Program-made: the position numbers and the translations under genes
DNA from: Candidatus Zixiibacteriota bacterium
GTDB taxonomy: Bacteria; Zixibacteria; MSB-5A5; CAIYYT01
Length of the DNA: 27,707 nucleotides
Direction: 5' to 3'
Assembly: GCA_040235515.1 (NCBI GenBank)
Contig: JBECKX010000046.1
Location: forward strand, 1-27,707
Notes under the pieces: generated by a model
What the model was told of the DNA's origin: nothing
The model's input: only the letters and a program-made list of their open reading frames with translations
The model's database searches: none
In this document: positions 2,612 through 19,445 of the stretch, piece after piece
How the letters are laid out: every line of letters begins with the position of its first letter
Position numbering within the stretch: position 1 is the first letter of the stretch

Positions 2612-2808
2612 AACTCGGAGTTCGCACAAAGAGAGCTATAAGCCGTTGTCAAACTTTGATTTACACTTAGAGGCTTTGGGGTGCCCGCCGAGCGGATAGG
2701 CATATCCTGCGCCGGCAAAACATCAAACATTCAACGTAAAATCGTTAATCCACTGTCGGGTAATGAGTTAAAGGGACGCAAATTCTGCGGGTCGCAGGCA
2801 AAAAGAAA

Positions 2809-2898
2809 CGAGTGCTGTCTGTTGATTATTGCGGGGAACACAAGTTGGAGATCTTTGAATGCTTTTGGCTTGTGTTGGAACCAGACAAACAACACTCG
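2809..2898. repeat. Long imperfect inverted repeat
   Basis: Outer arms CGAGTGCTGTCTGT / ACAAACAACACTCG; inner arms AACACAAG (2837-2844) / CTTGTGTT (2869-2876). Confidence 0.7.
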
Positions 2899-3089
2899 CT
2901 TGCGATAGCTCTCCGAAACAAATGTCTCGTCAAGTATCGGCAGAGGATATATAGCACACCGACTCGCACTGCGCAAGTCGATTTTTCATCAAAAATTCGG
3001 ACTCTGATTTTGACCAGTAATTCTCGCTGATTTTGTAGTAAATCACACCAAGAAGCGGCAGAGGGGAATCGGTAGGAGGACATCAAATA

Positions 3090-4394
3090 GTGAACCTAAG
3101 ACGATTTCTACCTCTTGGCGGCGCAAAAGCAGCAAAGGGCAATGCGGTTGATTCCCGGGCGGAGTCGCTCGCGGCCCGCAAATCGGGAATCGCGCGTGGC
3201 CTGGCTGCGCCGCGACTAAAGCATTTCGACAGCAACTCTGAGAGTTTGCTCGCGCTCTCGATCGACCAACACTCACTGGGCCGGTCACGGCTCGAATTGT
3301 ACCGTTTTCTGCGGGATCAGGTACCGATACTCAACTCGGTCATCTGGACCTGGGTCAGACTTTGTGCTTCCCCCTACGAATATCAGATCGTCTCGACGGT
3401 CGATGAGGCAACGGAACGACGCATCTCAGATATCATCCATGCGCTCGATTGCCGCGTATACCGCAATGGCCTGATGCAGCTCGGTGGTTTCCGTGAATTG
3501 CTGCTTCAATGCTTCGAGTCGCTCTTCACCGATGGCTCTGTCTGTGGTGAGATTCAATTGACCCCTTCAAAACGACAGGTCGACCGCTTCCTGATCGCAG
3601 ACATGCGTACGATCGAAATCGAGTCGGAAGGGGAAGCGTACTCACTCTATCAACGACACGGCGAGCGACGGACCCGACTCAATCCGCGAACCATGTTCTA
3701 CTATGGCCTCAATTCGCAACCGGGCGATCCGCGCGGAATCTCATTGCTCAAGGCTATTCCATTCGTTGCCAGGGTTGAACAGGCTCTGGTCAGTGATATG
3801 CATCGAGCGATGCGGTCGGCCGGTTACCAGCGTATTCATGTGAAGATCACACCGCCGGAAAAGCTGCCCGGTGAGGCCGATAGCGACTACATCAATCGAG
3901 CCAATAACTACTTCGATAACACCGTGGGGATGATGCGCGATTTTGGGCCCGATGTAAACCCGGTTACCTGGGATGATGTCAAGATCGAGTATGTCGGACC
4001 CTCCGCGCGCAGTTCAAGCAACAACGCCTGGTACTTGAATCACAAGTCGATGATCGAGGATATCTGTGCCGGGACCCATCTGGCTCCGTTCATGCTTGGT
4101 TACGCTTACGGTACCACGCATAACTGGGCCGAGTTCAAGTATGAACTGGTGCAACGTCAGGTCCTGACCGTACAGAATGCCGCCGCGTCCTTGCTGAACT
4201 GGATCGCGAACATCGAGCTGGCGCTGCAGGGGATCAACGCCGAGGTGCGCTTCAGCTTCGAGAACCGCGCCCATGTCGGACTGACCGACCGAGCCGCTGC
4301 GCAGAAGACTCAAATCGAGAACATAATCAAGCTCCTCGACAACGAACTGATCACGCGTGAACAGGCGCAGCGTGAACTGGAGCGAATCCGTTGA
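3090..4394 (+). CDS. Phage portal protein, 434 aa
   Basis: AGGAGG RBS and GTG start. Size, the helical N-terminal LYRFLRDQVPILNSVI and the GDPRGISLLKAIPF clip-like motif fit a portal; it is adjacent to terminase and capsid genes. Confidence 0.75.
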   Translation: MNLRRFLPLGGAKAAKGNAVDSRAESLAARKSGIARGLAAPRLKHFDSNSESLLALSIDQHSLGRSRLELYRFLRDQVPILNSVIWTWVRLCASPYEYQIVSTVDEATERRISDIIHALDCRVYRNGLMQLGGFRELLLQCFESLFTDGSVCGEIQLTPSKRQVDRFLIADMRTIEIESEGEAYSLYQRHGERRTRLNPRTMFYYGLNSQPGDPRGISLLKAIPFVARVEQALVSDMHRAMRSAGYQRIHVKITPPEKLPGEADSDYINRANNYFDNTVGMMRDFGPDVNPVTWDDVKIEYVGPSARSSSNNAWYLNHKSMIEDICAGTHLAPFMLGYAYGTTHNWAEFKYELVQRQVLTVQNAAASLLNWIANIELALQGINAEVRFSFENRAHVGLTDRAAAQKTQIENIIKLLDNELITREQAQRELERIR

Positions 4395-4451
4395 GCAGGC
4401 GTTCTTTAGTGACAATGAAAACAGACCCGGCCCCTGCTTCACTTCCTGTCC

Positions 4452-4531
4452 TGCGCGCTGTGTAGTCGCTACTCGCTGTACAGACGCGCACCCCTCGGGC
4501 AGCCTGGTCGCCAGAACTCGGCCGGCTGCCC
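4452..4531 (+). promoter_or_regulatory. Two tandem GC-rich hairpins between portal and terminase
   Basis: TGCGCG-CTGTGTAG...CTGTACAG-a-CGCGCA (4452-4490) and GGGCAGCC...GGCTGCCC (4497-4531). Confidence 0.5.
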
Positions 4532-4570
4532 ACCATAAACCTTCCATTACTATTCAGAGAAAACTGCCCA

Positions 4571-5917
4571 ATGCACAAGGGACCTTCAATTGTTATCAGC
4601 AGAGGCAATCGCTGGCGTCGCAGCGTGACAGATCCTGTACTCTTCTGCCGCGAATTCCTTGAATTCGATCCGCATCCGGGGCAGGAGGCTTGGCTACGTG
4701 GTTCGAACCACTCGCAAAACCTGCTTGTCACGGGCAATCGCTGGGGAAAATCTCACATTCAGGCGGCAAAGATTCTCCATCGTGCCATCTTTCGTATCAG
4801 GGATCTGAAGTTTGATCGGGCAAGACATTACAACATTCTCAACCTCTCGATAACGCAGGACCAAGCCAACATCATCTTCCGCAAATGCCTCCAACTACTT
4901 GAGGGAAAGCCGCTGCTTGAGTTGCTGATCCAGAGAGTCGTCCATACGCCGTTCCCACGACTGGAGTTCAGCAACGGTGCTTCCGTGATGGCAAGGAGTT
5001 CGCAGAACCGCGGAGAGTACATACTCGGACACGATTTCGACTACATCAACTTCGATGAAGTCGCCTTTGAATTGCATCCTGACTATGTCGTTGACGAGGT
5101 GTTGACGATGCGTCTTGCAGATCGCAAGGGGAGGCTTGACCTGGTCTCGACCCCATGCGGCAAGAACTGGTTTTATCGCAAATTCCTCGAACTGCAGTCG
5201 CACACCGATGGTTTTGTGCATTCGGGGTCGTCGCGTGATAATCCGTTTATCGCGCAGGAGTATGTTGCATCTCGCTCGGAAGCGCTCTCCCCGAAGCGGG
5301 TGCAGCAGAACATCGATGGCGAATTCGTCGATGCGGAAGACCAGGTCATCTCGGAGGAGAGTCTGCAGCGAGCATTAACGCAAACCACCGGGCTTGCCGG
5401 CAGGAAGGAGCACCACCGCTATCTGACCGGGTGGGATTTAGCGCGCAAGTCGACGCATACCGTCGGGGTAACGCTGGATGTCACCACGCGACCGTACCAG
5501 GTGGTAGCCGTCGAACGATTCAACCGGATCGATTGGCCGATGGTTTATGCCCGTATCCGTAAACGAAAGCTCAAGTACGGAGGAGACACGGTGATCGATT
5601 CCACCGGGTTGGGGGATGTGGTGATCTCAGATGTGGGGGATATCAAGCCTATCGGCTTCGTCTTCACGAAGCGTTCCAAATCGGAGTTGCTGCTGAATTT
5701 GCAGATGACATTTGAACGCGGCGAGCTGGGATTACCATATATCGAGTTCGGACTGGGGAGCGACCAGTACTGGAACTTTACCGACGAACTGCGAGAATTG
5801 CGCTGGGAAGAGAACAATCATTGTGATGGTGCGATGGCGCTTGCCCTGGCCCTATGGGGAATGCGGCCGGATGTCGAGAGTCCGACACGGCCGCATTTCA
5901 AGCTTGGTCAAGTGTAA
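4571..5917 (+). CDS. Phage terminase large subunit, 448 aa
   Basis: Q motif (HPGQ), Walker A GNRWGKS, Walker B YINFDE, motif C STP, and RNase H-like nuclease acids GWD, IDSTG and HCD. Confidence 0.93.
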   Translation: MHKGPSIVISRGNRWRRSVTDPVLFCREFLEFDPHPGQEAWLRGSNHSQNLLVTGNRWGKSHIQAAKILHRAIFRIRDLKFDRARHYNILNLSITQDQANIIFRKCLQLLEGKPLLELLIQRVVHTPFPRLEFSNGASVMARSSQNRGEYILGHDFDYINFDEVAFELHPDYVVDEVLTMRLADRKGRLDLVSTPCGKNWFYRKFLELQSHTDGFVHSGSSRDNPFIAQEYVASRSEALSPKRVQQNIDGEFVDAEDQVISEESLQRALTQTTGLAGRKEHHRYLTGWDLARKSTHTVGVTLDVTTRPYQVVAVERFNRIDWPMVYARIRKRKLKYGGDTVIDSTGLGDVVISDVGDIKPIGFVFTKRSKSELLLNLQMTFERGELGLPYIEFGLGSDQYWNFTDELRELRWEENNHCDGAMALALALWGMRPDVESPTRPHFKLGQV

Positions 5918-5985
5918 GCTTACGGGCTTATGGGGAAAAGTACAGGAGGTCTCTCGGTGTGACCGAACGGGGGTGGGCTCGCAAT

Positions 5986-6366
5986 CTAGCGCGCGTGTCT
6001 GCGGCGATTTACGATCCCGGCTCCGGCAAGTCCCATTCCGAGTAGCAGGAGAGTCGTCGGCTCCGGAACACTGGTCGGTGGGTTAAACTCCTCACCGATG
6101 ATTTCACCACCATCCCACGGACGGTAATAGTCGTCGTGGTTGAAGTAGTTGGGATCCATAAAGCCGTTATTGAGCTGGATTGAGTGGAGCGTCGGGGTGA
6201 TGCTCGAAGTCGGCAACTGGTCCGTCAGCACCGGCTCGGTGAAATGGAAGCTGGCACTCGACATGCCGTCGGCGTTCTCAAAGCTCAAAGCCAGGATGAA
6301 CAGAACCGTTAGCAGCCCGATCAGCGTCAGTTTCATGCCATTCCAAATTGTGTCTACTCTATTCAT
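5986..6366 (-). CDS. PEP-CTERM exosortase-sorted protein, 126 aa
   Basis: N-terminal signal peptide; C-terminal VPEPTTLLLLGMGLAGAGIVNRRRHAR; GAGGAG RBS before ATG 6366. Confidence 0.92.
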   Translation of the reverse strand: MNRVDTIWNGMKLTLIGLLTVLFILALSFENADGMSSASFHFTEPVLTDQLPTSSITPTLHSIQLNNGFMDPNYFNHDDYYRPWDGGEIIGEEFNPPTSVPEPTTLLLLGMGLAGAGIVNRRRHAR

Positions 6367-6395
6367 AGAATACTCCTCATTCTGTCCTCGACTAA

Positions 6396-6523
6396 TGCAA
6401 CTGTCGTGCCGAGTTACAGAGGGTTCAAGAACGAGCATAAGCTGCAATTCAACAATATCTTACGCAACAACGAATTATGGCGGACTCGCAGGTGTGCAGA
6501 CAGCTTCTATGCAAAACTTTTCA
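6396..6523 (-). promoter_or_regulatory. sigma54 promoter with IHF-like site and PEP-CTERM-box-like enhancer
   Basis: CGGCAC-GACAG-TTGCA (6411-6396); TAAG-N17-CTTA at 6438-6462; TGCAAA-AC-TTTTCA at 6510-6523, resembling TGTAAA-N2-TTTACA. Confidence 0.8.
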
Positions 6524-6594
6524 GTTTAGTTGCTAACCGTCGGTTGGCGGCTTGTTGTGATTTTGAGGAAAACTCGGCCCCGGTGGGTAAGTGA

Positions 6595-7665
6595 ATGCAG
6601 TTTTCGACATGGAGGAAACAATTGTACTCGCTTACCGGACACCTTTCCGTAATTCCGAAGCTGGCGTCACTGTCGATCGACCGTGAATCGCTCCTGCTGG
6701 AGCTGAATCGCAGGATCGCTCCGAAACAGCCGCTGACAACTGAGAACATCAATCTCGGGGTACTTCATGCCGCATCGAATCAAGTGAACATCCAGGGAGG
6801 CTGTTTCGAGCAGGCGGAACTTGAGAGGCTGGCTGATCTGCTGATCGATGCGCCGGTGATGGTAGGACATCAGAAGCAGGAACTCCCGATCGGCAGGGTA
6901 TTCAAGGCAGATCTCATCACACGTGACGGCGCCCCCTGGCTTCGTGCCTTCTTCTACTGGTCGCAGCTCCACCCGCGTGCCGAGGAGTTGAGAAGCGGAA
7001 TCGATAGCGGAATCTATCGGGAGTGCTCGCTCGGCTTTCTCTATCACCGTCCCGAGTGCGCGATCTGCCGCGAGGATATGCGTCGCTGTCGTCACCGCGT
7101 GAATGAAGTGGTGCAGGTCGGTACCAGGAGCCTTCGCGCCTTCTACTACTACAAAGAGATTCAGAAGGTGCTGGAGATTTCGCTGGTCTACCGGGGGGCG
7201 GTGGAGGGCACTTCAGTCTCAACCCTGAAAATCGACTCCCGTGAGAGCCAATCAGCCGGTCAGGACATCTGCCGTGATAAGGGTGAATTCTCCCCAAAGC
7301 AGTTTGAGGCGTATCAGACGGATCAGGATCAACTCCACCTGCGACTGAAAGACAACCACGCGGGTCGCTGGTTGACGCTGACCCGGTTTGACCCGAAGCG
7401 CCTGAATGCAGGCTGCCGCTTCGAAATCAGTGCTCCAGCTCAATGGCCGCATTGCTGCCATCAATCTCTCCGGTTGACGGACAGGGGAAGCTGCCGCGTC
7501 CAGAGTGTTGAGGCCGATGGAGCGGTGATCCTGAGCTTCAACGGCAACTCCCTGAATGGGCTCTATCGGATCGCGGCCGAACCGAACATTGCCACCGGGG
7601 AGACTACACTCTTCTTCAAGCGCATAGCCGCTGCCGGAGACTTCGGCGGAGTTTTCAATGAGTAG
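6595..7665 (+). CDS. Prohead (capsid maturation) protease with Zn-finger insert and extra C-terminal domain, 356 aa
   Basis: PVMVGH...PIGRV (His), IDSGIYRECSLGF (Ser), a CAIC...CRH insert and EISLVY.GA fit the HK97/herpes-like protease fold. It lies between TerL and the capsid gene. Confidence 0.78.
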   Translation: MQFSTWRKQLYSLTGHLSVIPKLASLSIDRESLLLELNRRIAPKQPLTTENINLGVLHAASNQVNIQGGCFEQAELERLADLLIDAPVMVGHQKQELPIGRVFKADLITRDGAPWLRAFFYWSQLHPRAEELRSGIDSGIYRECSLGFLYHRPECAICREDMRRCRHRVNEVVQVGTRSLRAFYYYKEIQKVLEISLVYRGAVEGTSVSTLKIDSRESQSAGQDICRDKGEFSPKQFEAYQTDQDQLHLRLKDNHAGRWLTLTRFDPKRLNAGCRFEISAPAQWPHCCHQSLRLTDRGSCRVQSVEADGAVILSFNGNSLNGLYRIAAEPNIATGETTLFFKRIAAAGDFGGVFNE

Positions 7666-7969
7666 TCAGGGCTCAAGCAGTGATCAATTCAAGCTCTTGC
7701 AGCGAGGTCGTTTGGTTCGATTCATAGTCACCATCGTCATCGCCACCGCCGGCATCCTGACCACCTACCACACCACGATTTATGGACTCCGTGAGGAGTT
7801 GAACAGGAAAGCCGACCGTGAACTGGTGGCAGCAATCGACAGCCACCTGGTTCGGATAGAGACGATTTTGAACGAACGGATGGCAACCAAAGCTGAACTG
7901 CAACAAACCAGAGAAGCGCTGACCGAGAAACTCAATTCAATCGAACTACAGCTACGCTCGTTACCCTGA
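7658..7969 (+). CDS. Small single-TM coiled-coil protein, 103 aa
   Basis: Hydrophobic FIVTIVIATAGIL followed by a heptad-like helix; overlaps the protease stop. Confidence 0.65.
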   Translation: MSSQGSSSDQFKLLQRGRLVRFIVTIVIATAGILTTYHTTIYGLREELNRKADRELVAAIDSHLVRIETILNERMATKAELQQTREALTEKLNSIELQLRSLP

Positions 7970-8013
7970 TCAGCCAGATTGGAATCGATACAACCCTCAA
8001 GAAGAGAGGAACC

Positions 8014-8409
8014 ATGAATCTTACAGATCTGAGCGTGACTCTGCGCGAGAGTGCGCGCCTGTTGCAGGAAGGACTGTTGGGTGAACTCGACCCCTCCGAC
8101 CTCGCACGAAATCTTACCGCCGCCGCCGAGCTGCTTGTCGCCGCAAAAGATGATCGCAACATAGCGGGGCGCATGCTCGAACAATTTCGCGACGAACTGC
8201 GTCGCCGGGCACGCGCCGTCGCAAAGCTATCGGGAGGCGACTCCGCACTGATCGAAAGACTGATCGATGGCGCGGAAACGAGCTTCGATGACCTGGTCAA
8301 GCTTGGCAAGCAATTGAGCGCCGACTTTGACAGGGCGTTCTCGGCGTCCCTCGCAGAAGCTGACAAGCCGCCTCATCCCGACGAGCAACTCGCGGCTTTC
8401 AAGTCGTAA
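8014..8409 (+). CDS. Helical protein, putative capsid scaffold, 131 aa
   Basis: GAGGA RBS; charged, all-alpha composition; position before the decoration and capsid genes. Confidence 0.55.
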   Translation: MNLTDLSVTLRESARLLQEGLLGELDPSDLARNLTAAAELLVAAKDDRNIAGRMLEQFRDELRRRARAVAKLSGGDSALIERLIDGAETSFDDLVKLGKQLSADFDRAFSASLAEADKPPHPDEQLAAFKS

Positions 8410-8448
8410 ACAGGAACAATCCTCAAGCCAATAAAAGGAACTACTCGA

Positions 8449-8868
8449 ATGGGAATCAGAGAACAGAACCTCGAAACAGCAGGGGCGACTTATCTCACCT
8501 TTGCCGTCAACCAAACCACTGGCAGCGATGACCTGACCGATGCCGACATCGGCAAGGCTGTGTCGCTTGCCGGGGACTACAAAGTTACGCTTGCGTCCGA
8601 TGGCGCACAACTGCTCGGCAAGTTGATCAGTCTCACGCTGACTGATGCCGACAGCGGCAAACGGCAGGCGAATGTCCAGGTTGCCGGTGTGATGACATTG
8701 CCGATCGCTTCGACCTATCCCACACTTGGAAATCGAGTCGTAGGCGCAGCAGGTGGAGCGGTCAAACAGGCACCTGCCCTGGCGGGTGATGACCCGGCGG
8801 GTGGCAACATCGCGCGCGGCACCGTGATCGCCATGAACGGAACCGCGGACTGTACGCTTATTCTTTAG
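8449..8868 (+). CDS. Putative capsid decoration/cement protein, 139 aa
   Basis: Small Gly/Ala/Thr-rich beta protein (DIGKAVSL..D..VTL..DG..L.G, VQVAG) immediately upstream of the major capsid gene; AAGGA RBS. Confidence 0.65.
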   Translation: MGIREQNLETAGATYLTFAVNQTTGSDDLTDADIGKAVSLAGDYKVTLASDGAQLLGKLISLTLTDADSGKRQANVQVAGVMTLPIASTYPTLGNRVVGAAGGAVKQAPALAGDDPAGGNIARGTVIAMNGTADCTLIL

Positions 8869-8886
8869 TCATAGAAAGGGATACCA

Positions 8887-10005
8887 ATGAACAAACTGAT
8901 GGACACCAACCCCGAGACTACCCAGGTGCCGCCCACATTCTGGAAGGCGCTTGTCGCCGAGGATGACAAGCCGATCGCCGGCATCGACCTCACGCGCGCC
9001 CGGGCGATCGACGTCTCCCGGGACACCTACCTCGAAGCGCAGGCACGCGGGCTCAGCTTGTCGGAACTGCTCGAATCGAATGAGTATGATCCTTCTCCGC
9101 TCAACTCGCCCCTCGACGCATTCGAGCGCCAACTGGCTGCTTCCGGAGTTCAGGTAAGTGGCAAGAGCCCGCACAGCGTCGAACTCTTCTTCCGCAAAGC
9201 GCCCGCGCTGGTGCCTGAATTCGTCGCGCGGGAAATCCGCAAGGGGATGGCGATGCGCTCCATGTACAACGGGCTCACTGCTTCAAGCTCCGCTGTTGCC
9301 TCCAACCGCTACTCACCGCTCTACATCGACGTCTCAAGCAACGACACCCGTCTCTCCCTGCGCCCACTGGGTGAGGGTGCGGAAATCCCGCAGGTGGTCG
9401 TGACGGAGCAGCAAAACACGATCACGGTACCTGACTACGGTGTGGCTCTGAAGACTTCTTACAAGACACTGCGGCACAAGACTACCGCACAGTTCAAAGT
9501 GTTGCTGTGGTACATCGGGTTCAGACTGCAGGAGGACAAAGTCGCGATGCTCGCCGATGTCTTGATCAATGGTGACGGCAACGCAAACGCCGCGAGTGTG
9601 GTCACCACCGATGTCAGCGGGACACTCGACTATGATGATCTCGTAAAATTCTGGGCGGAGTTTATGCCGTTCGAGATGAATACCGTCATCTGCTCCAAGA
9701 CGAAATTGCGTGAACTGCTCAACCTGGGTGAGTTCAAAGATCCGCTGGCGGGATTCAAGTTCCAGTCCACCGGCGAGATGGTGTCACCACTCGGAGCAAA
9801 ACTGGTGCGCTGCGACAACGTCGCCGATGATCTGCTGATCGGGTTCGATTCCCGCTTTGCAGCTGAGGAGGTTATCGCTCAGCCGCTGATGGTTGAGTTT
9901 GACAAGATCATCGAACAGAAATTCGAGGAAGCCGTGATCTCCGAGTCTGTCGCGTTCGCCAAGGTTATTCCGGCTGCGACGCTGGTGCTCGACGACAACT
10001 TCTAG
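8887..10005 (+). CDS. Major capsid protein (HK97-fold), 372 aa
   Basis: LDAFERQL, LVPEFVAREI, GEGAEIP (E-loop), YGVALKTSY, backbone helix ending VLINGDGN, and a C-terminal P-domain pattern. Confidence 0.85.
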   Translation: MNKLMDTNPETTQVPPTFWKALVAEDDKPIAGIDLTRARAIDVSRDTYLEAQARGLSLSELLESNEYDPSPLNSPLDAFERQLAASGVQVSGKSPHSVELFFRKAPALVPEFVAREIRKGMAMRSMYNGLTASSSAVASNRYSPLYIDVSSNDTRLSLRPLGEGAEIPQVVVTEQQNTITVPDYGVALKTSYKTLRHKTTAQFKVLLWYIGFRLQEDKVAMLADVLINGDGNANAASVVTTDVSGTLDYDDLVKFWAEFMPFEMNTVICSKTKLRELLNLGEFKDPLAGFKFQSTGEMVSPLGAKLVRCDNVADDLLIGFDSRFAAEEVIAQPLMVEFDKIIEQKFEEAVISESVAFAKVIPAATLVLDDNF

Positions 10006-10030
10006 TCGCTCTGCTGAAAGAAGCAACCCG

Positions 10031-10065
10031 GCCTGCTCGCCCGTACTACCTGCGGGTGGGCAGGC
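10031..10065 (+). promoter_or_regulatory. 15-bp stem-loop after capsid gene without U-tract (mRNA stabiliser/attenuator)
   Basis: GCCTGCTCGCCCGTA ctacc TGCGGGTGGGCAGGC; the G-U pairs favour the plus strand. Confidence 0.6.
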
Positions 10066-10112
10066 ACCACTTCGGTGAGAATCCTCCAGCAACAAATGGG
10101 GAATAGTGATTT

Positions 10113-11534
10113 ATGCAAAACCTGATATCCACTTCCACTGCTTTCTACGGAGCGGGAAACTCCCTCGCTCGCAGGAGCTCCGTCGTTCGCAGCGGTCCGT
10201 ACAGCGGCCGAAAGGTCGTGCTGCTGCAGAGTGATGCAACCACGCTGCAGTTGCGTTACGCCGATCCACCCCACGCGAATTGGTCGGCACCGATCGAGAT
10301 TGCCGATGATCTGTCCGACTTCCCGGTGAGTGGTTGCTGCGACGATGAAGGCAACCTTTACTGCGTCTATACTCAGCAATCAACGTTAAACCTGATTTTC
10401 CGGAAACTGACCTTCGAACTCGGGGCCTGGAGCGTGGGCGATCCGGTCACTATCTATGACGGCGGCGACTGCTATTTTCCGGCAATCGCCCGCGACTCGT
10501 TGCAGCGTTTGCATGTCAGCTACACCTGGTTTAATTCAAGCAGTGGCAACTATCGCGTGCGTTACAAGCGCTCCACGACAGATGGCGCCGTCTGGGGAGG
10601 TGGTGCATCCGACCCCGGCACAGACCTCACCACAGGTTCCGCTGCAGCATACAGTCAACTACTCTATTCCGCCCCGACGCTTTACTGCGTCTACACCGAT
10701 GCCGGCGCAAAACTCGCTCTCCGTGAACTGAGAGATGGTGCGATCTTGTGGGAAGCTGAACAGATCGCACACAGTGGCATCTTCCTGAGTGACCGGTTCA
10801 GCGCCGCCCTCAACGATACCGGCACACTGCTCGGAATAGCATTCGAATCGACCGGAAGACTCTACTACATCGAATATGATGGCCAGAGCTGGAGCGGTCA
10901 GTTTGACATCGCGAGCACTCCCGCCACTCCACCATTGCTGCAATTTTCCGGGGGCGAGCCGAGTTTGTTCTACGGCGTGGCAATTGGTACCGGGCAGGTC
11001 GCAGTCGTATGTCGACGAAAGCAGGGGACCGGGTTCCTGGCGGAAGAGAACCTCGGCGGGGATGTCTCGATCTTTCGCGATGTTGTACTCTATGACGACA
11101 ATGGCACACCGCAGTTTATCTCGCGCCGTGACCAGGCTGGTGATACCGCTACTGCGGATATCGTGCACCCCTCCTCAGGTGCTCTGGTCGCAGACTCTCA
11201 GGACGCGATCTATTTCGGCTGCGACGACCCGTTCGGTTCCATCACGATACTGCTCTCTACCGCCGGCAGTGGAGGAAGCGTTGCGTGGGAGTACTTCAAT
11301 GGCAGCTCCTGGAACGCTTTCGAGCCTCTCTCGGGGGCATATCATTTCGATCAACTCACGCAGGTCGTTCGACTGTGGCAGGACTCGCGGAGAGCACCCT
11401 CCGATTGGCAGCCGTGCGAAATCCACTCCGTCTCGGCGCTGTGGGTCAGGGCACGCGTTACGGCTAGCTTCTCCACACCACCCGTGGGAACGCAAACAAC
11501 ACCGCTGACCGACATCAAGTACCTGAGTGCATAA
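10113..11534 (+). CDS. Putative virion protein: BNR/sialidase-like beta-propeller plus C-terminal jelly-roll domain, 473 aa
   Basis: Repeated blade-like units (LYCVY, LHVSY, YKRSTTDGAVW, YDGQSWS); C-terminal WEYFNGSSW...PSDW...WVRARV; no signal peptide. Confidence 0.55.
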   Translation: MQNLISTSTAFYGAGNSLARRSSVVRSGPYSGRKVVLLQSDATTLQLRYADPPHANWSAPIEIADDLSDFPVSGCCDDEGNLYCVYTQQSTLNLIFRKLTFELGAWSVGDPVTIYDGGDCYFPAIARDSLQRLHVSYTWFNSSSGNYRVRYKRSTTDGAVWGGGASDPGTDLTTGSAAAYSQLLYSAPTLYCVYTDAGAKLALRELRDGAILWEAEQIAHSGIFLSDRFSAALNDTGTLLGIAFESTGRLYYIEYDGQSWSGQFDIASTPATPPLLQFSGGEPSLFYGVAIGTGQVAVVCRRKQGTGFLAEENLGGDVSIFRDVVLYDDNGTPQFISRRDQAGDTATADIVHPSSGALVADSQDAIYFGCDDPFGSITILLSTAGSGGSVAWEYFNGSSWNAFEPLSGAYHFDQLTQVVRLWQDSRRAPSDWQPCEIHSVSALWVRARVTASFSTPPVGTQTTPLTDIKYLSA

Positions 11535-11544
11535 GGAGGATAAA

Positions 11545-12381
11545 GTGCCATTTACCAATATTGACAATATACGGAAGCACCTGGTTGATACCGATGTAAC
11601 CCGGGCCACCTTCAACGATATCCCCCTGCAACTGAGCGGCACCAACCCCGCTGCCTTGCTGCATCAAAACCTGGTGGGAGACTCGGTGGTAGTGAAGGGC
11701 AAGGAGCTCGCCGCCCCGCATTTCGTGAAGCAGGCTCTGGGAGATGAGCCGGCGTTCCTGGGGAAATCTCAACTGATTCCCGATAGCGTTGCAGTTGCGA
11801 GTGATACCTCTCTCGGCACGATATTCACGGAAAACGTTGACTACCAGATTAACCATGGCAGCGGCGAGATCAGCAGGCTTGCCGCCGGAAAGATCTCCGC
11901 AGGCGCAACAGTCGCTATCTGGTTCTATGCTTATTCCATCTATCAGCCCTCGAGTGACTATTTCGTCAACGCCGCCGCCGGAACCATTCGGCGAGCGTCC
12001 GATTCGAAGATCGAGGATGGACAGGTAGTTTTCGTAGACTACAAGACCACAACTTCAAACTTCTCCGACGCGCAGATCGAGGCCGCCATCGTGGAGGCCA
12101 ACGATCGCCTCAAACAGCTGATTGCCGCGGAGCATCATCACTCGGTTGATCAATCACTCATCAGCGCAGAGACCTGCATCGCACTGGCGATTCTGCTCAG
12201 AATTCGTGCTGCTGCGACACTGCAGGAGAACCTGACCGCTCAACCGGGCAGTACCGCACGGGAGTTGCTGGAGCTTGCCGGAGATTACGATCGCAAGGCA
12301 ATCGACATCGCAGCACCGTATGCCGCGCAGCGCTCGACTTTGTTGGGGCCCGTCGGAGTAACCGCAAGGAGTAAGGAATGA
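11545..12381 (+). CDS. Head-tail connector/adaptor-like protein with two inserted beta domains, 278 aa
   Basis: AAGGAGG RBS and GTG 11545. N-terminal MPFTNIDNIRKHL and C-terminal helices SDAQIEAAIVEANDRL resemble gp6/gp15/Mu gp36 connectors; internal duplicated DY..N...G.I.R....KI..G..V motif. Confidence 0.55.
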   Translation: MPFTNIDNIRKHLVDTDVTRATFNDIPLQLSGTNPAALLHQNLVGDSVVVKGKELAAPHFVKQALGDEPAFLGKSQLIPDSVAVASDTSLGTIFTENVDYQINHGSGEISRLAAGKISAGATVAIWFYAYSIYQPSSDYFVNAAAGTIRRASDSKIEDGQVVFVDYKTTTSNFSDAQIEAAIVEANDRLKQLIAAEHHHSVDQSLISAETCIALAILLRIRAAATLQENLTAQPGSTARELLELAGDYDRKAIDIAAPYAAQRSTLLGPVGVTARSKE

Positions 12382-12752
12382 ACCAGACACTCGGCTATCT
12401 GCTCGGAAAGAGGATGTGGTGGATTGGTGGACTCAATGTCTGGGGCGAGCTGGCCGCCACCACGCCGAAATTCTTGATCTCCGAGAGCGACGCGGGCGGG
12501 TTCAGGATTCTCCGGGCGTCGTATTCGCTTGGCGGAATGACCCAGGATGTCCGTTTCGGTGAACTGGTTGATGTCAAGGGCAACCTGCTGCCGTCGATTA
12601 TCAATCGACCTCGCGTTGTCCCAATCAGCAGGGGGGCGACATCTGCAGTGATTCAAGGCGAAGCTCAGGCTGATTCTTTCAGGATTGCAAAGGCGAATGC
12701 GACCAGCGCGCCGGTGCTGGTCGATTTGTTGATCATCGAAATGGGGGAATAA
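12378..12752 (+). CDS. Hypothetical beta-rich protein, 124 aa
   Basis: ATGA overlap with the upstream gene and AGGAG RBS. Confidence 0.65.
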   Translation: MNQTLGYLLGKRMWWIGGLNVWGELAATTPKFLISESDAGGFRILRASYSLGGMTQDVRFGELVDVKGNLLPSIINRPRVVPISRGATSAVIQGEAQADSFRIAKANATSAPVLVDLLIIEMGE

Positions 12753-12753
12753 C

Positions 12754-12915
12754 ATGCTCCACACCAAACTGGTCGGGCTGATCTGTCCATCATGCGGACT
12801 GCTCTTTTTCGCGCAGTCGGATGGCATCGACTACGACTGTCCCGCCTGTAACTGCAAATGCCGCTCCTCGAATCAAACTCTGATCCACGCAGAGTTGGGT
12901 GGGAGAGCTCAATGA
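12754..12915 (+). CDS. Small zinc-ribbon protein, 53 aa (absent from ORF track)
   Basis: MLHTKLVGLICPSCGLLFFAQSDGIDYDCPACNCKCRSSNQTLIHAELGGRAQ. GGGGGA RBS; starts 1 nt after the upstream stop and overlaps the next gene by ATGA. Confidence 0.7.
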   Translation: MLHTKLVGLICPSCGLLFFAQSDGIDYDCPACNCKCRSSNQTLIHAELGGRAQ

Positions 12916-13199
12916 CAAATGAGGAAAAGTTGCGGCGAAAACGCGCGAGCGATCTTGAGCAATTGCAGGAGTTGCAGGACCGCATGATCGAGGAGCTACG
13001 CTCCAAGGAAATGAACCCGAAAGTGGGGGACTTGCTCAAGACACTGGAGCTGAAATTGAAGCTGAAGCTGCCGGCGGATGAGAAAGCGAAGATATGGGAG
13101 TTGATCAACCAGCTAAGAGAGGAGGAGCTATCATCAAGCACGACCGCAGACAAGAAACGTGGCAGGAGTGCCTCGAAGCGACAAAAAAAGTCATCGTGA
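12912..13199 (+). CDS. Charged helical protein with basic tail, 95 aa (possible displaced small terminase)
   Basis: ATG 12912 is coupled to the zinc-ribbon stop, with GGGAG upstream. The function is inference only. Confidence 0.6.
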   Translation: MTNEEKLRRKRASDLEQLQELQDRMIEELRSKEMNPKVGDLLKTLELKLKLKLPADEKAKIWELINQLREEELSSSTTADKKRGRSASKRQKKSS

Positions 13200-14671
13200 C
13201 CGGCTTGTTGCTGTTGACGTTGTCAGCAGCGGCGGCGGCGCAACGGGCAGCGGTCGTCGTCGAGGATATCGCAAACCCCGGCATCGATACATTGCTCTTC
13301 AACTCACTGAGCTACGACCTGGACTACGCTACCCGCTGGCTGACTCCGGACTCAGTTGCCTTATACAACTCGGCCTACTTTGACACGGCATTCGAGGTCG
13401 TCGTATGGTGTGGAAATGAAGTGGCGGGGCCATATCCCTCGGCAGCCGCTGACATCGTGGCAAGCTCGACAACCGGATTCGTGAGTCTGCTGCCGGAGAA
13501 TTGGGACGAGATCAACCTGGGGGTCAATTCCGCCGGTACAGAAGGGCGAACTGCGGAAAACAGCGGCTTCGTCGTCACAATCGACCGTGAGCACTGGATC
13601 ACGCGGGTACTGCAGGACACGGTTTATCTCTGGCTCGGTACCTCGGTACAGATTTATGGCCTGGTTTTTCCCGACACGGCGCATGAGATTCGCCCACTGA
13701 TCATCGACAAAGATAATCTGGGCGATACCGCGAAGGTGCACCTCTGCGCCGCCGATAGTGGCGACATCATTATCAATACGGGCGATGGCAACAACATCGC
13801 CAGGGGACGACGGGTATTCCTCGGCCTCTTTTCGGTCACATCCACAGCGCGCGATTCGTGCCAGTTTTTTACGATCTTCAATCGGTCAATCGCCTGGGCT
13901 GCCGGTGATACACTCAATCCCGGTGTCGCGCAAACTGCCTGCTTTAGTGGCAGAATCGAAGTCGAAGATGCATGGGGGGAGAACTCCTCCGGCTCAGACT
14001 CTCTTGAGAGTTACGGCGGCTGGCCCAATCTCTACACCGGGTTTGATTTTGACCCCAAGATTACATTCATGAGGATCGCTAATGCTGCCCTTGCCCGCAA
14101 AATGCCTGTCGACGGCCTGCAGGTCGAGGATTTTACTATTCGTACCAGAGTCGATGAAGTCCTGAATGGTGATGCCGACTCGCTCTGGGAGTCAACCAAT
14201 GCGATTAAGCTCCTCAAGCGCCACTGGGTTTGTGGGGATGCCACCGGCTCCACGACAAGCAATTTCGTGAGCTGGAGCTATCGTTACATACAGCCGCCCG
14301 ATAGCTTTCCCTGGGCTGCCGGCGGTGCGATGGCGGCCAACGTTGATGTCGTGGACACGCTGCTTGATTCGATCGAACAGAATCGCAGCAACACCTACAG
14401 CGGCGCATTTCTGCATTGGAGTATTCCTGCTCACTTTGCAGAGAGGATGCTCGCAGACACGCTCAACAATCACGGCTGGGTCTGGCACAACATCTGGAAC
14501 AATCAGGTCGGCGAACTCAATGACGCCGAGATCATCTACTACTCGTCGGATGTCGGTTCGGTGCTGAACAGACCAGTAATCACGATCAGATGGTCACCCA
14601 CCCTGCAATCGGAACAAACGCGCCGCCGTCACCCGGTGATCGGAGTCGGCGCATTGGAGGTAAATCAGTGA
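13196..14671 (+). CDS. Exported protein with C-terminal DNRLRE-like domain (start uncertain)
   Basis: GTGA overlap; hydrophobic GLLLLTLSAAAAA; C-terminal NNHGWVW...IYYSSD...NRPVITIRW resembles the ends of DNRLRE domains. Confidence 0.6.
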   Translation: MTGLLLLTLSAAAAAQRAAVVVEDIANPGIDTLLFNSLSYDLDYATRWLTPDSVALYNSAYFDTAFEVVVWCGNEVAGPYPSAAADIVASSTTGFVSLLPENWDEINLGVNSAGTEGRTAENSGFVVTIDREHWITRVLQDTVYLWLGTSVQIYGLVFPDTAHEIRPLIIDKDNLGDTAKVHLCAADSGDIIINTGDGNNIARGRRVFLGLFSVTSTARDSCQFFTIFNRSIAWAAGDTLNPGVAQTACFSGRIEVEDAWGENSSGSDSLESYGGWPNLYTGFDFDPKITFMRIANAALARKMPVDGLQVEDFTIRTRVDEVLNGDADSLWESTNAIKLLKRHWVCGDATGSTTSNFVSWSYRYIQPPDSFPWAAGGAMAANVDVVDTLLDSIEQNRSNTYSGAFLHWSIPAHFAERMLADTLNNHGWVWHNIWNNQVGELNDAEIIYYSSDVGSVLNRPVITIRWSPTLQSEQTRRRHPVIGVGALEVNQ

Positions 14672-15723
14672 AGAAGATCATATTGGCGGCTTTGCTGCTG
14701 ACAAATTCCTGTCTCGCGGCAATTTGGGTATCACCAGCCTATGTGGGGGATGCAGAGCAGGATTCGGTAGTGATATCGTTTTGTGTATTCGACACAACGC
14801 TCTATCCGGTGATTGCCGATGCCGACAGCATAACGGCAATTCGGCTCGGTCCTGACAACACTCTTATTGATTCACTCGACACCAGCAGCTCTCAGTTGCT
14901 CCACCCCCGCACCGGGTGGTACGAAATCCACTATCGCGCTTCTGATCCCGGCGGATCCACCGGAACATATCGCGTGTACGTGCGGGTCAATGTCGGCGGG
15001 GATTGGCGCGGTGCCGCGACTGTTTCCTACACAGTTATCGGGGATGGGGTAGACAACTACCTGGCGCAGCTTGTGACTCAATCTGCAGAGATACGGGACT
15101 CGGTGGGGGTTATCCTGCAACAATTGCCTGACGGCGGGTCGGGTGCGTACCCTTGCACACTCACCACTTTTGACCAGACTAACCAGGTTGCGGTGCCGGG
15201 CGCTGCGGTTACGCTCTACAACTCCGACGAGTCCGCGCTGATCGCCTCCGGAGTCTCCGATAACAACGGTCGTCTCATCCTCGCGCTCGATGCCGACGAC
15301 TATTCGGCATACTCCCGAGCAATGAATTACAACCCGCTTCAACTACCAAAATCGATCAGCACGACATCGGGTGGGAGCAACGACACACTCTTCCTCTCCC
15401 CCTTCGCTCCCGGTGAACCGGCGGATCCCGGTCTGTGTCGCGTTTACGGCTACGTCTACAACTTGCATGGCGCACCCCTGGCTGAGGTAGTCGTCCGGGC
15501 GACACTTGAGACCAACTCTGTCGTTGCAGACGGCGCAGTTATCTCACCTTATGCGGCGAGCACGTCGACAGATACGCTGGGATATTGGTATCTTGATCTG
15601 ATTCCGACTTCACACATGCAACCTGAGCCAGCCACCTACGATTTTTCGATCTACTATCCTGCGGGAACGATTTTTCGGCGGGCAGTAGCGGTACCGGACA
15701 GCAGCAACTACTGGCTGAAGTGA
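14668..15723 (+). CDS. Secreted protein with Ig/carboxypeptidase-regulatory-like beta-sandwich domains, 351 aa
   Basis: GGAGG RBS and GTGA overlap; signal peptide MKKIILAALLLTNSCLA; VPGAAVTLY...SDNNGR and VYGYV...GAPL...TDTLGYW repeats. Confidence 0.7.
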   Translation: MKKIILAALLLTNSCLAAIWVSPAYVGDAEQDSVVISFCVFDTTLYPVIADADSITAIRLGPDNTLIDSLDTSSSQLLHPRTGWYEIHYRASDPGGSTGTYRVYVRVNVGGDWRGAATVSYTVIGDGVDNYLAQLVTQSAEIRDSVGVILQQLPDGGSGAYPCTLTTFDQTNQVAVPGAAVTLYNSDESALIASGVSDNNGRLILALDADDYSAYSRAMNYNPLQLPKSISTTSGGSNDTLFLSPFAPGEPADPGLCRVYGYVYNLHGAPLAEVVVRATLETNSVVADGAVISPYAASTSTDTLGYWYLDLIPTSHMQPEPATYDFSIYYPAGTIFRRAVAVPDSSNYWLK

Positions 15724-16337: not shown

Positions 16338-18563
16338 TCACGAGCCGCACGGCGCGGCACCGGCAGCAAAGATGAAGTTGATCAGGAACACGGCATCTGA
16401 AACCGTCGTCATACCGTCGCAGTCGGCGTCTCCATGTTCAAGCGACGCCGGTGCCTGTCCTCCACCGAAGATGTAGTTGATGAGATAGACAGCATCCCCG
16501 ATGCTGTAGGCTCCGCTGTTGTCGGCATCACCACGCAGTACCTGCGGAAGGCAGCTATACTTCATGAAGAAGTAGTTATCCTCAACCTGATCGTTCCCAT
16601 CGAGGGCACGGGCGCGAATCAAGTAGAGCAAGCCCTCATGCAGAAAACCGCCGGACGGCACCACGGCGTGGAAACCGTTGAACCCGTCAAAGTCGGTGCC
16701 TATCTGGGTATAGCTGAGTGACTGCTGTGCCGGGTACATCCCCAGCGCGAGATCGACGCGGTAGGGAGTATTGTTCGGAAGGTAACCTACGACCAGAGAA
16801 TCACCACGGGTGAGGAGATACGAGGTACGCAGCAAACCACCGACCGGGTCGTACAGCGTGACAACGAGGCTGTCGGCGGTTGAGGCGGCGTAATCGATTT
16901 TCTTGAGGCCGAGCCAGTTTCCGAACGGCCCCGCAACCGCCAGAGCTGCGGTGCCTCCTCTACCGGCATAAACCTCCTTGAGCCAGGTCCAATCCGGTTT
17001 CTGCGGCGTGCTCAGCAGTACGCGCGATTCACGTGCTTTGAGGTAGTCACGCAACGCAACCACGAGGTTGTCATCCTGCGTTCCTAACATCTCGCGAGTC
17101 GAGAAGATCTCTGCAAGTTTCTCAACCTGTTGGTCGACGCTATAGAACTGCGAGCCATTCGCCATCACTTCGATGAATCCCCGATCGAACCAATACTTGA
17201 GCATCGAAGCAACGGCGCATGGCGCTACATAGTACTCCCCGAACTCACCATTATAATTATGATTGCCGTCAGCCGGATTTCCGTTGGCATCGCCATACGA
17301 AGCACGGTTGAGTTGCTGCAGCGAGCGTTCCTCGAAACTCGACAATGCGCGATAACCGAAGGTCACCGCCACGGGGTTCTCATCGCTGATTGTCACCTCT
17401 ATCGAGTCACCCGCACAGGCAGTGCTGAAATCGGGATTCTGATTGAATTGCGGTTCCAGCGGCAGCAGGTCCAGGTATGCCGAAATCGTGTCTGAGTAGT
17501 AGATCTGTTCGGGTGTGAAGATCGAGACCCGCATCAGGTAGTTTCCCTCAGAGATTCCAAATGTGGTCATCGGCGTCGACCAGCCATTGCTGTTAGCTGC
17601 GGCGCTGACGCCGTTGCGGAGCACCGGGGTTCCATTGAAGTCTTCGCCGATCTGCCACCATTGGTTCGATTTGTAGTATTCAAACAGCGCCGAATTGAAA
17701 GTGTACTTGTCGTTCAGTTCCGCCGCCCACAGCATCTGACCCGCCACGACACGGCCGGAATCTGCCGGGAAGATAAACTTCGGTTTGGGCAGGGCACCGT
17801 CGGTGGCGTAGCCGACGCTGAAGAGATGTATCGAACCGGGGAAGTTGTAATATTCGTTATCCGCGAGATCGGAGAGCCCGTAGCCCCACTCATTCCAGTT
17901 GATGCAGAGGTATGGCGTCGTGTCGAGGGCGATACCGGGATAGAATGCCGTCATGTCGGAGGCAAAATAGAGCCCCGCGAAATATGACCCTTCGACCGCA
18001 GTCGGTTGATCAAGCTGAACCATGAACGTATAAACGTTCGGTTCCGGGATACTGACCTGAAGCGGCTCGGTTAGTGCGAGGAAGTTCCCCGGGATCGGAC
18101 ACACCGGTGAAGAATAGAGCGAGTCGATGCCGGTAAGAAACGCCTGAACCTGAAATGTTCCGGCAGCGTTGAGGACCAGCGTCATGCCGACATGGGTTAC
18201 CACATAGGGATAGTTCTCTGCGCAGTCAACCAGCGGAAAATTGATATCCTGGTAAGCGTAGTAAATCTCATCACCCTCCATCCAGTCAAAGAGTGCTTGC
18301 ACGGGGTAGTCAACGAAGACGGTGCAATCGGAGATGATATCTTTGCTGCTGAGCAGAGGCCCATCCAGGGCCCCGCTATCAGGGAGTAATGACTGCCGGG
18401 CACCCAGGCGCTCGGAGATTGATCCCGTACGTACCGGATTGGGAGGCAGATCACGCCACACCGCTCTACCTGGAACCGGTTTTGTGATCGGGGCACTCTC
18501 GGCCATCAAGCCGGAGATCAGGCAGATCAGCAAACCGGCAACTGTGATTGTGAGAGATCTCAT
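16338..18563 (-). CDS. Secreted multidomain protein with C-terminal type I dockerin, 741 aa
   Basis: Signal peptide from ATG 18563 (MRSLTITVAGLLICLISGLMA); twin GDAD..G....DAV.LIN.IF repeats. Confidence 0.8.
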   Translation of the reverse strand: MRSLTITVAGLLICLISGLMAESAPITKPVPGRAVWRDLPPNPVRTGSISERLGARQSLLPDSGALDGPLLSSKDIISDCTVFVDYPVQALFDWMEGDEIYYAYQDINFPLVDCAENYPYVVTHVGMTLVLNAAGTFQVQAFLTGIDSLYSSPVCPIPGNFLALTEPLQVSIPEPNVYTFMVQLDQPTAVEGSYFAGLYFASDMTAFYPGIALDTTPYLCINWNEWGYGLSDLADNEYYNFPGSIHLFSVGYATDGALPKPKFIFPADSGRVVAGQMLWAAELNDKYTFNSALFEYYKSNQWWQIGEDFNGTPVLRNGVSAAANSNGWSTPMTTFGISEGNYLMRVSIFTPEQIYYSDTISAYLDLLPLEPQFNQNPDFSTACAGDSIEVTISDENPVAVTFGYRALSSFEERSLQQLNRASYGDANGNPADGNHNYNGEFGEYYVAPCAVASMLKYWFDRGFIEVMANGSQFYSVDQQVEKLAEIFSTREMLGTQDDNLVVALRDYLKARESRVLLSTPQKPDWTWLKEVYAGRGGTAALAVAGPFGNWLGLKKIDYAASTADSLVVTLYDPVGGLLRTSYLLTRGDSLVVGYLPNNTPYRVDLALGMYPAQQSLSYTQIGTDFDGFNGFHAVVPSGGFLHEGLLYLIRARALDGNDQVEDNYFFMKYSCLPQVLRGDADNSGAYSIGDAVYLINYIFGGGQAPASLEHGDADCDGMTTVSDAVFLINFIFAAGAAPCGS

Positions 18564-18875
18564 ACGCACGCTATCATTATCGGCAGAGATCAGCGCCGGG
18601 TAAATGGGGAGCAAGGGAACGAAAGTGCCGCCGGCTATCCTGCCCGGTTGGTCTGAACCGTAGTCGGTCTGAGAATGCCGGGCAGCCGGAATGGGGGATA
18701 GAGGCTTTGATCGCCGCTTTCAGAGATATTGCTCTACAATATCCGGCTGCGTCTATCTTGAATAATTCCAACGAGTTACAGACATAACCGCGAGGGGGCA
18801 TGGTCGTCGGAATCACGGCGAGTAGAGTTCGCTCTGCACTCAGAGAATAATTTTCATTCAAGCTTCACAAAGTTA

Positions 18876-19135: not shown

Positions 19136-19363
19136 ATGGATTGGCAAAATGAGTATGACCCGGCGCAGGAGGCGGCGGTTGCCACAGCGGCCACCAGTTC
19201 CGCACTCGAATGCCGTTGTGGAGGAATTGTGCAGAGTTGGGGGGATGAGTTGCTTTGCGACGCCTGTGGACGGCGTTACTGCCCCGAATGTGGCGGTGAA
19301 GTCGTTATCGAAGGGCGTTGCGGTTATTGCGTGGCGTGTGCTGCGTCAAGTTGCGAAGGCTAG
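19136..19363 (+). CDS. Small Cys-rich double zinc-ribbon protein, 75 aa
   Basis: GAGGAG RBS; CRC, CDAC, CPEC and CGYCVAC motifs. Confidence 0.7.
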   Translation: MDWQNEYDPAQEAAVATAATSSALECRCGGIVQSWGDELLCDACGRRYCPECGGEVVIEGRCGYCVACAASSCEG

Positions 19364-19445
19364 CGGTGTCTGGCTATGACCGGAAGATCGAAGAGTGTCT
19401 TGATGAACCTTGGTGGGGCCAGGTCAGAAATTTTAAGAAAGGGAG

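Follow-up and report, generated by a model that had tools for sequence, protein, structure and literature searches.

A conserved, apparently tail-less capsid and DNA-packaging cluster of Zixibacteria is a candidate gene-transfer-agent-like particle

The gene transfer agents (GTAs) described so far come, to our knowledge, from few cultured lineages and look like tailed phages. GTAs package mainly random host DNA, in pieces too small to hold the GTA genes, pass it on to recipient cells, and are induced in a subpopulation that lyses. Encapsulins are host-encoded shells of the HK97 fold that are kept vertically, load proteins, and lack a portal, terminase, protease, scaffold and adaptor, and the satellites called capsid-forming phage-inducible chromosomal islands (cf-PICIs) encode head, packaging and adaptor genes without tail genes, are mobile, carry integrase and replication genes, and package themselves. 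Here we analyse a 27,707-nucleotide stretch of DNA from a Candidatus Zixiibacteriota bacterium (assembly GCA_040235515.1, 100% complete in 218 contigs), referred to as the window, which is the entire contig JBECKX010000046.1. Thirteen genes on its plus strand (positions 3090–15723), all free of internal stops, encode a portal, a large terminase subunit (TerL), a prohead protease, an HK97-type major capsid protein and proteins that accompany them. The original prediction, made from the letters of the window, had proposed a host-maintained, tail-less GTA-like particle in a Zixibacteria-like lineage, and the lineage is right, the close relatives being Zixiibacteriota. The best reading, in our judgement, is that the cluster was captured from an ancient double-stranded DNA virus before the radiation of living Zixibacteria and then passed down vertically, which would make it a viriform, that is, something virus-derived that its host has exapted for a function important to the life cycle, in the ICTV definition (accessible text of PMC9953437).

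GTAs of the Rhodobacter capsulatus type (RcGTA), to judge from the accessible text of PMC9953437 and PMC6854486, resemble the Zixibacteria module in that their HK97 head and packaging genes pass down vertically with no replication or integration genes alongside, in occupying more than one locus in some lineages, in a small terminase subunit (TerS) without a DNA-binding domain, and in a gp6-like adaptor fold. The Zixibacteria module differs from them in having no tube, tape measure or baseplate gene, in its protease–ligase fusion and signal-peptide fibre genes, and in being near-universal in its phylum. NCBIfam models of RcGTA gave no match to 14 proteins of the window beyond one coiled-coil hit (E 0.09), placing the module outside the RcGTA family, and its portal, TerL and capsid families are not those of RcGTA, which argues for a separate domestication. 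It shares with GTAs vertical inheritance, the absence of a replication or integration module of its own, and an intact portal–terminase motor with a capsid (with one exception, genome G028, discussed below); as far as gene content goes, with five tail families searched for, its particles would not resemble tailed phages. Unlike cf-PICIs, it has no integrase or replication genes and follows the host tree, and so does not classify as a satellite; unlike encapsulins, it has a co-conserved portal, TerL, protease and adaptor, and it gave no encapsulin Pfam match.

Of 285 genomes that represent the phylum, 256 gave a match to the capsid gene (189 of the 198 near-complete ones, 18 of 20 families), with two matches in 12 of the 256; among the 150 matches listed, identity is 58–100% and none has a stop. 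TerL is present in 261 of the 285 genomes, including 190 of the near-complete ones (148 of the 150 matches listed have no stop), and the adaptor gene in 200 of 208; each of the three is nearly always single copy, in 189–190 of the 198 near-complete genomes. Decoration, capsid, propeller and adaptor genes stand together in all of 40 loci (17 families), accompanied by the gene for a 124-aa protein in 39 and by the protease gene in 38, and metagenome loci of at least 9 kb have the same layout. In several families the cluster is split, portal–TerL being adjacent in most families and elsewhere in f13, f17, f19 and f20; in the single-contig genome G207 it lies 110 kb away from the capsid gene. Patchy, strain-specific presence with pseudogenes in relatives, which would have counted against a host-maintained module, is thus not what we see: the genes are nearly always single copy and in intact frames across the phylum.

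The tree built from five head genes agrees with that of ten host genes in 41 of 44 splits (FastTree; 47 genomes of 17 families), as compared with 40 of 44 between two halves of the host markers and 0.35 with shuffled labels (maximum 4 in 1000), and none of 35 strongly supported splits is in conflict. The portal-plus-TerL tree shares 27 of 35 splits (38 genomes), with no conflict among 21 strong ones. These trees omit G001, whose markers are fragmentary, and G024 and G202–G204, which lack markers or cluster. Across five genome pairs the ratio of nonsynonymous to synonymous substitution rates (dN/dS) is 0.03–0.13 for the capsid gene, 0.05–0.09 for TerL (four pairs) and 0.02–0.16 for the portal, as compared with 0.02–0.07 for rpoB, and mostly below 0.25 for the other genes, most values being close to 0.1, with the caveat that dS, at 0.5–4, is near saturation and undefined for several genes. 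These comparisons indicate that the cluster is inherited by vertical descent under purifying selection, which implies a benefit to the host; synteny, tree congruence and substitution rates in relatives all speak for the host-maintained module that had been predicted.

These data bear directly on whether the cluster is a prophage, ordinary or in decay, or a piece of a prophage left by the assembly. Its genes are of phage type, and an IMG/VR record of such a cluster has been called as a virus. That record (IMGVR_UViG_3300027896_005586) holds this host cluster alone, with a capsid 67% identical and the same gene order and leader element, and some of the Zixibacteria 'viral' contigs in databases are therefore host DNA. 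Against a prophage stand the single copy in about 95% of good genomes, the congruent tree, the intact frames, GC content at third codon positions of 0.61–0.75 (0.66 ± 0.05 for 1370 long open reading frames (ORFs) of the genome), and host genes on both sides, as had been noted from the sequence: genes for CvpA and CheR on the left, and for a CDP-alcohol phosphatidyltransferase, a dockerin protein, an SF2 helicase and Lon on the right. The prediction that integrase, attachment-site tRNA, repressor, replication, tail and endolysin genes are missing likewise stood up, scans of 22 and 18 ORFs of the window finding no integrase, repressor, replication, tube, tape-measure, baseplate or endolysin family, and a tRNA search of the window finding none; the three tyrosine-recombinase matches in the genome are all on other contigs. 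An assembly break hiding the rest of a prophage can be set aside, because the cluster ends 3 kb and 12 kb inside the contig termini. Only three DNA sequencing runs, all of low depth, contain the stretch; their contigs show no joint where the cluster ends and do not differ clearly in depth, and are uninformative. No RNA runs are listed among the runs that contain it. Distribution and tree congruence, as read from sequence, refute the prophage reading, to which we leave a negligible probability, and that the host domesticated a virus module is close to certain.

The motor genes suggest that the module packages DNA. As had been predicted, the ATPase and nuclease motifs of TerL are intact, and none of 27 aligned homologues departs from it in Walker A (T54–S61), Walker B (D162/E163) or the nuclease residues (D289, D343, D419). 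A 113-aa gene of the cluster is, judging by its position and by weak profile matches, a small terminase remnant: its profile gives matches to the gene that immediately precedes TerL in two viruses described below, G285 (E 2e-5) and G286 (E 8e-6), and in L064, L065 and L155, loci of three families, the gene lies between portal and TerL. What remains of it are the oligomerisation helices, without the N-terminal CxxC/helix-turn-helix domain that both viruses have. Among 98 distinct Zixibacteria homologues this domain was found in three by pattern and in one more by eye, all at the portal–TerL position; these four copies are of the f16/f17 type. The TerS of RcGTA also has no DNA-binding domain, which the accessible text of PMC6854486 gives as the proposed cause of random packaging. 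This genome and most homologues share that feature, the four f16/f17-type copies excepted, and most Zixibacteria lineages thus appear to have dropped the DNA-binding domain, like RcGTA.

No long or contractile tail of a conserved type appears to accompany the heads, in agreement with the original prediction. Tape measure (TIGR01760) and baseplate (Baseplate_J, PF04865) matches are sporadic, in 8 of 121 and 10 of 101 genomes and in neither case in this genome, and sheath (PF04984), P22 gp10 (PF11134) and head-closure (PF05521) families were not found in this genome either; a divergent short tail could escape a search of these five families. When 1949 ORFs from related viral loci were compared with this genome, only head genes and generic enzymes matched. 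What the portal vertex does have is an adaptor: the predicted fold of the 284-aa gene product matches the Mu neck subunit (Z 9.5, root-mean-square deviation (rmsd) 2.9, 92 residues aligned), HK97 gp6 (Z 8.6), T4 gp13 (Z 8.4) and an RcGTA chain (6tba, Z 7.1), and although these Z values are middling, seven of the eight top rows beyond the first are phage neck or portal–tail chains. We therefore assign it as a probable head-completion adaptor of the gp6 type.

The gene before it encodes a beta-propeller whose best fold matches are lectins and sialidase-like propellers (Z 23–25, rmsd 2.5–3.2 Å, about 290–310 residues) and whose sequence relatives are modules within large proteins, making it a candidate receptor-binding protein or portal-vertex plug. 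A nozzle of the P22 gp10/T7 type was considered for this gene and not adopted: the top Foldseek row was a phage portal–tail chain with a TM-score of only 0.27, the wide search led to lectins and generic propellers, BFVD returned unspecific propellers, and PF11134 gave no match, as stated above. Modelled as a complex, adaptor and propeller scored 0.54 as compared with 0.00 for the best control (contacts agreeing to at least 31%, partner pLDDT, the predicted local confidence, at least 88). This is weak support, one of three runs having given 0.00: 116 of 157 solved pairs attain the score mark, as do 2 of 215 that are mismatched, and scores of up to 0.60 comprise 18 of the 157 and both mismatches. 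The 124-aa protein has 100 homologues, unnamed or from Zixibacteria, no PDB sequence match, Atlas matches that are unnamed and score below 0.9, and no match to a 159-aa protein of G285.

The last two genes, E and F, are candidates for exported fibres. Positional equivalents of E range from 190 to 1204 aa, some with DNRLRE/CBM96 or BNR domains, and 31 of 38 have a basic run at the C-terminus (no control was run for this count). F combines a signal peptide and a variable middle with conserved C-terminal tandem prealbumin-like domains that are also seen in viral proteins; its best Atlas clusters are viral (score 0.92–0.93, with a phage_tail_N lead at 0.88), and its N-terminus is hydrophobic in 42 of 46 loci. 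The signal-like segments of E and F were judged by hydropathy and not by a signal-peptide predictor. Gene E resembles one in the fibre region of a tailed prophage of genome G010 (E 1e-8). That prophage (contig C16; loci L318, L319) is separate, has a tape measure and Baseplate_J, and has similar matches in four of eight genomes of its genus; its fibre-region genes start signal-peptide-like and resemble the E/F pair, and the C-terminal domain of F did not match its F-like protein (probability 0.2).

A head with a conserved gp6-fold adaptor and no tail genes might borrow tails from phages that infect the cell or reside in it, so that host DNA would be transduced with a helper, in the style of cf-PICIs, and tailed prophage modules do occur in about one in ten genomes, one of them with the E/F-like genes just described. 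We consider this improbable, given that the head-closure family was not found in this genome, that no tail is recognisable in virus G286, which shares the adaptor, and that tail compatibility is unlikely to stay fixed across a phylum.

The free viral relatives of the cluster are distant. With the capsid as a single query protein IMG/VR gave no match, alignment scans gave distant relatives, and INPHARED yielded five unannotated contigs of 32–36% identity. Two IMG/VR records, IMGVR_UViG_3300031920_000406 (G285, 55 kb, linear) and IMGVR_UViG_3300014309_000087 (G286, 31,492 bp), share scaffold, decoration, capsid, TerS, TerL, portal, adaptor and protease–ligase genes with the cluster at 30–36% identity, so that no close match to a complete phage speaks against domestication. 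Their capsids group with those of Zixibacteria at support 100/98, which together with the PHROG matches (Table 1) points to a viral origin, and monophyly of the Zixibacteria capsids has support 80/83, with a warning of long branches. Compared with the cluster, both viruses keep replication or recombination genes, the TerS helix-turn-helix, glycan-modifying enzymes and lipase (G285 also an endolysin), and in neither was a homologue detected for the propeller, for the 124-aa protein or for E or F. Among 35 ORFs scanned, G285 has RecE/T, an endolysin and a spike, and no long-tail gene. G286 is circular, with a 123-bp terminal repeat across which the protease–ligase gene reads on, and its 41 scanned ORFs include DnaB, an initiator, a ligase and a lipase, with no tube, tape measure, baseplate or sheath and two weak tail-labelled domain hits; it is a single record, rated 21% complete by CheckV despite the terminal repeat. 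It also has (loci L329/L330) propeller repeats, sugar-modifying enzymes and no recognisable integrase; about 20 adaptor relatives exist at 43–100%, and its lineage is possibly a tail-less portal–terminase virus family in its own right. Because this sister virus has no recognisable tail, tail-lessness may be inherited: it may predate domestication, the donor lineage having already been tail-less or nearly so.

The existence of related free viruses, and of lineages that do without the module, would also suit an anti-phage role, in which the host's own head proteins or TerL would interfere with related viruses as they assemble, by poisoning or diverting the process, or would cause infected cells to die. 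Genes for defence are usually mobile and subject to turnover, unlike this module with its host-congruent tree; the nearest viruses are only 30–36% identical, and a full assembly pathway has been retained. We regard this role as quite improbable, more so than tail borrowing.

A more serious alternative, if still an unlikely one, is a domesticated shell with another job, such as adhesin display, a decoy for phages or predators, a DNA store or a source of extracellular DNA, with packaging secondary. The capsid is the most conserved part of the module, evolving at 1.18 times the rate of host markers as compared with about 2.4 times for portal plus TerL, and a lectin-like propeller, variable exported E and F proteins and no tail are what such a shell might have. 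G028, a single contig 99% complete, has kept capsid, portal and adaptor, with a host gene after the portal and no TerL found. On the other side, the TerL catalytic residues are invariant and TerL is as widespread as the capsid, and the retention of portal–TerL after capsid loss in four genomes is unexplained by a shell with another job as well.

Several observations weigh against a transfer particle, or against parts of that reading. Besides G028, they include losses at other points of the module: in G085 a clean deletion (L312:8480–10791) joins the protease to the 3′ part of gene F, the capsid half being gone, a natural knock-out for comparative work; G069, G072 and G075 retain portal–TerL without a capsid match; and G030, G121 and G202 match none of capsid, TerL and adaptor. 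G018, an apparent capsid loss with the adaptor elsewhere in its genome, was not counted. Since such losses exist, the system would be useful and not essential. The helix-turn-helix retained in f16/f17 means that, by the TerS criterion, random packaging is not universal, and signal peptides on E and F are odd for parts of a virion. The near-saturated dS, the long branches of the capsid tree and the single, nominally incomplete G286 record belong here as well. There is no endolysin in the cluster; the Caulobacter GTA lyses its cells without holin–endolysin (accessible text of PMC13236601), so a missing endolysin does not exclude a GTA. In other families a gene of about 105 aa with a single transmembrane (TM) segment, MEM109 (L038:1637–1942, minus strand, and equivalents), follows F at 33 of 76 loci (some duplicates), without a Pfam or PHROG match; it is holin-shaped by reading of its sequence, and no counterpart was found in this genome. 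Delivery, finally, is unexplained, no known tail-less HK97 particle being shown here to inject DNA.

With these points weighed, a domesticated tail-less GTA-like DNA-packaging particle that transfers genes remains the reading we favour, with moderate confidence. On induction, scaffold, capsid and portal would assemble a prohead that the protease matures; TerL and the truncated TerS would cut and pump host DNA without a sequence-specific pac site, in a headful and near-random manner; the adaptor would close the portal vertex and bear the propeller, the 124-aa protein and the exported E and F fibres in place of a tail; and particles, set free when the cell lyses or its envelope leaks, would bring DNA to kin in the manner of GTAs. 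Assembly, cargo, release and delivery we infer from gene content. A fuller version, to which we hold tentatively and with less than even confidence, is that the HK97 transfer particle has been tail-less and phylum-wide since the last common ancestor, descends from a still-living, undescribed lineage of tail-less viruses, recognises cells through its lectin propeller and exported fibres, and delivers DNA tail-free.

Table 1. Coordinates of the cluster genes and of associated features in the window.
Feature	Position	Strand	Basis
Conserved non-coding element, candidate leader or regulatory site	2795–2904	+	about 190 nt before portal start
Portal protein, 434 aa	3090–4394	+	phrog_3753 E 1e-23; phrog_30703 E 2e-18
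TerL, ATPase and nuclease motifs intact	4571–5917	+	phrog_2 E 4e-38
Small PEP-CTERM protein, antisense, recurrent passenger here	5986–6447	-	PF07589 E 2e-7
Prohead protease with C-terminal LigD-phosphoesterase-like remnant	6622–7665	+	phrog_16951 E 1e-10; TIGR01543 weak, E 0.03
Single-TM and coiled-coil protein	7658–7969	+	sequence; homologues at 65/76 loci
Scaffold-like helical protein	8014–8409	+	homologues at 67/76 loci
Head decoration protein	8449–8868	+	phrog_4588 E 1e-8; 40/40 loci
HK97-type major capsid protein	8887–10005	+	phrog_3922 E 9e-65; PF25209 E 4e-5; TIGR01554 E 4e-5
Beta-propeller and beta-sandwich protein, 473 aa	10113–11534	+	AlphaFold pLDDT 95
Probable gp6-fold head-completion adaptor with inserted tandem beta domains	11545–12381	+	AlphaFold pLDDT 92
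124-aa beta-rich protein, always next to adaptor	12378–12752	+	39/40 loci
Putative small terminase (TerS) remnant	12912–13199	+	weak profile matches and gene position
Gene E, candidate fibre or adhesin	13094–14671 (start 13094 or 13196 uncertain)	+	signal peptide, beta protein, basic C-terminal tail
Gene F, candidate fibre anchor	14668–15723	+	signal peptide; PF13620 E 3e-6

The head genes named in the original prediction are where it had placed them on the plus strand, in intact frames, with PHROGs naming the portal, TerL, decoration and capsid (Table 1), and parts of its description need amending. The run is not uninterrupted, an antisense PEP-CTERM gene separating TerL from the protease, as it does in many loci of families f1, f5, f7, f9 and f10; nor is the cluster head-only, as it also includes the TerS remnant, the propeller and two signal-peptide proteins. 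Good ribosome-binding sites are present, with Shine–Dalgarno-like sequences clear by eye before 10 of 13 genes once four starts are moved (protease 6622, adaptor 11545, TerS 12912, last gene 14668), and overlapping stop and start codons, said to be frequent, occur at only 4 of 12 junctions.

The protease has the predicted catalytic-type residues (His92 and Ser145, numbered from an ATG at 6595) and a CxxC..CxH motif. In relatives it is fused to an ATP-dependent ligase (PF01068, E 1e-28 to 1e-30) and a LigD phosphoesterase domain (PF13298); this copy, with 356 aa, falls about 250 residues short of the 598 aa of its same-genus orthologue, having lost the ligase-like middle. Across 114 sequences the ligase active-site motif is found in 7, the His motif in 110 and the Ser motif in 108. 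Intact protease–nucleotidyltransferase–ligase–phosphoesterase fusions resembling those of the free viruses occur in families f14/f15 (L059:12111–14441, minus strand; L061:5883–8084, plus strand), and the ligase decays stepwise across the other families. The scaffold has a homologue directly before decoration and capsid genes in G286 (E 1e-5), where a gene shaped like the single-TM/coiled-coil protein, without a sequence match to it, precedes TerS; we infer that this protein may be a membrane anchor or lysis helper. A PDB sequence search with the capsid alignment gave no match.

The element upstream of the portal gene is 93–97% identical among genomes of the same family and is present in 8 of 73 sources, all from the training set and confined to families f1 and f9. 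That the element is a structured or packaging RNA was considered and is not supported (single-fold z −0.87, consensus −2.4 kcal/mol, no Rfam match at the gathering score, two families only), and we do not count it among the core parts of the module. A second conserved non-coding stretch (2210–2615; 76–87% identical within f1) with a hairpin at 2214–2249 is a possible small RNA; Rfam returned a sub-threshold CsrC match only, and near 2605 on the minus strand lies a sigma-54-like site. To the right of the cluster (19136–22106, plus strand) lie a 75-aa Cys-rich gene and one for an SF2 helicase of 886 aa, whose C-terminal domain is distinct and by eye resembles a winged helix. Of 101 genomes, 98 have that domain; it is found no further than about 35 kb from the capsid or portal genes in f1, f3, f4, f14, f16, f17, f19 and f20, is unlinked in f5 and f8 examples, and is retained in the capsid-less G069, G085 and G121; the pair is a candidate regulator or DNA-processing partner of the cluster, or old synteny. 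Exported dockerin-tailed proteins (DUF7451; BACON repeats) are encoded at 16338–18614 (minus strand) and 25269–27551 (plus strand), and a relative of the former also follows the cluster in many f5–f8 loci.

In the open literature we found no description of a GTA or capsid system in Zixibacteria, as the original prediction had supposed; this search covered few subscription papers. The accessible text of PMC13626063 does not mention Zixibacteria, and bioRxiv 2025.02.15.638363, in its accessible part, concerns tailless viruses that are not of the HK97 type. If the reading is true, a virus module that is near-universal in an uncultured phylum and congruent with its tree would represent an independent and very old domestication, and its living viral relatives show what was dropped: replication, TerS DNA binding and ligase activity. 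The cluster also makes it possible to ask how often GTA-like systems occur beyond the cultured groups, and by what means a head of the HK97 type may be closed and deliver DNA without a tail.

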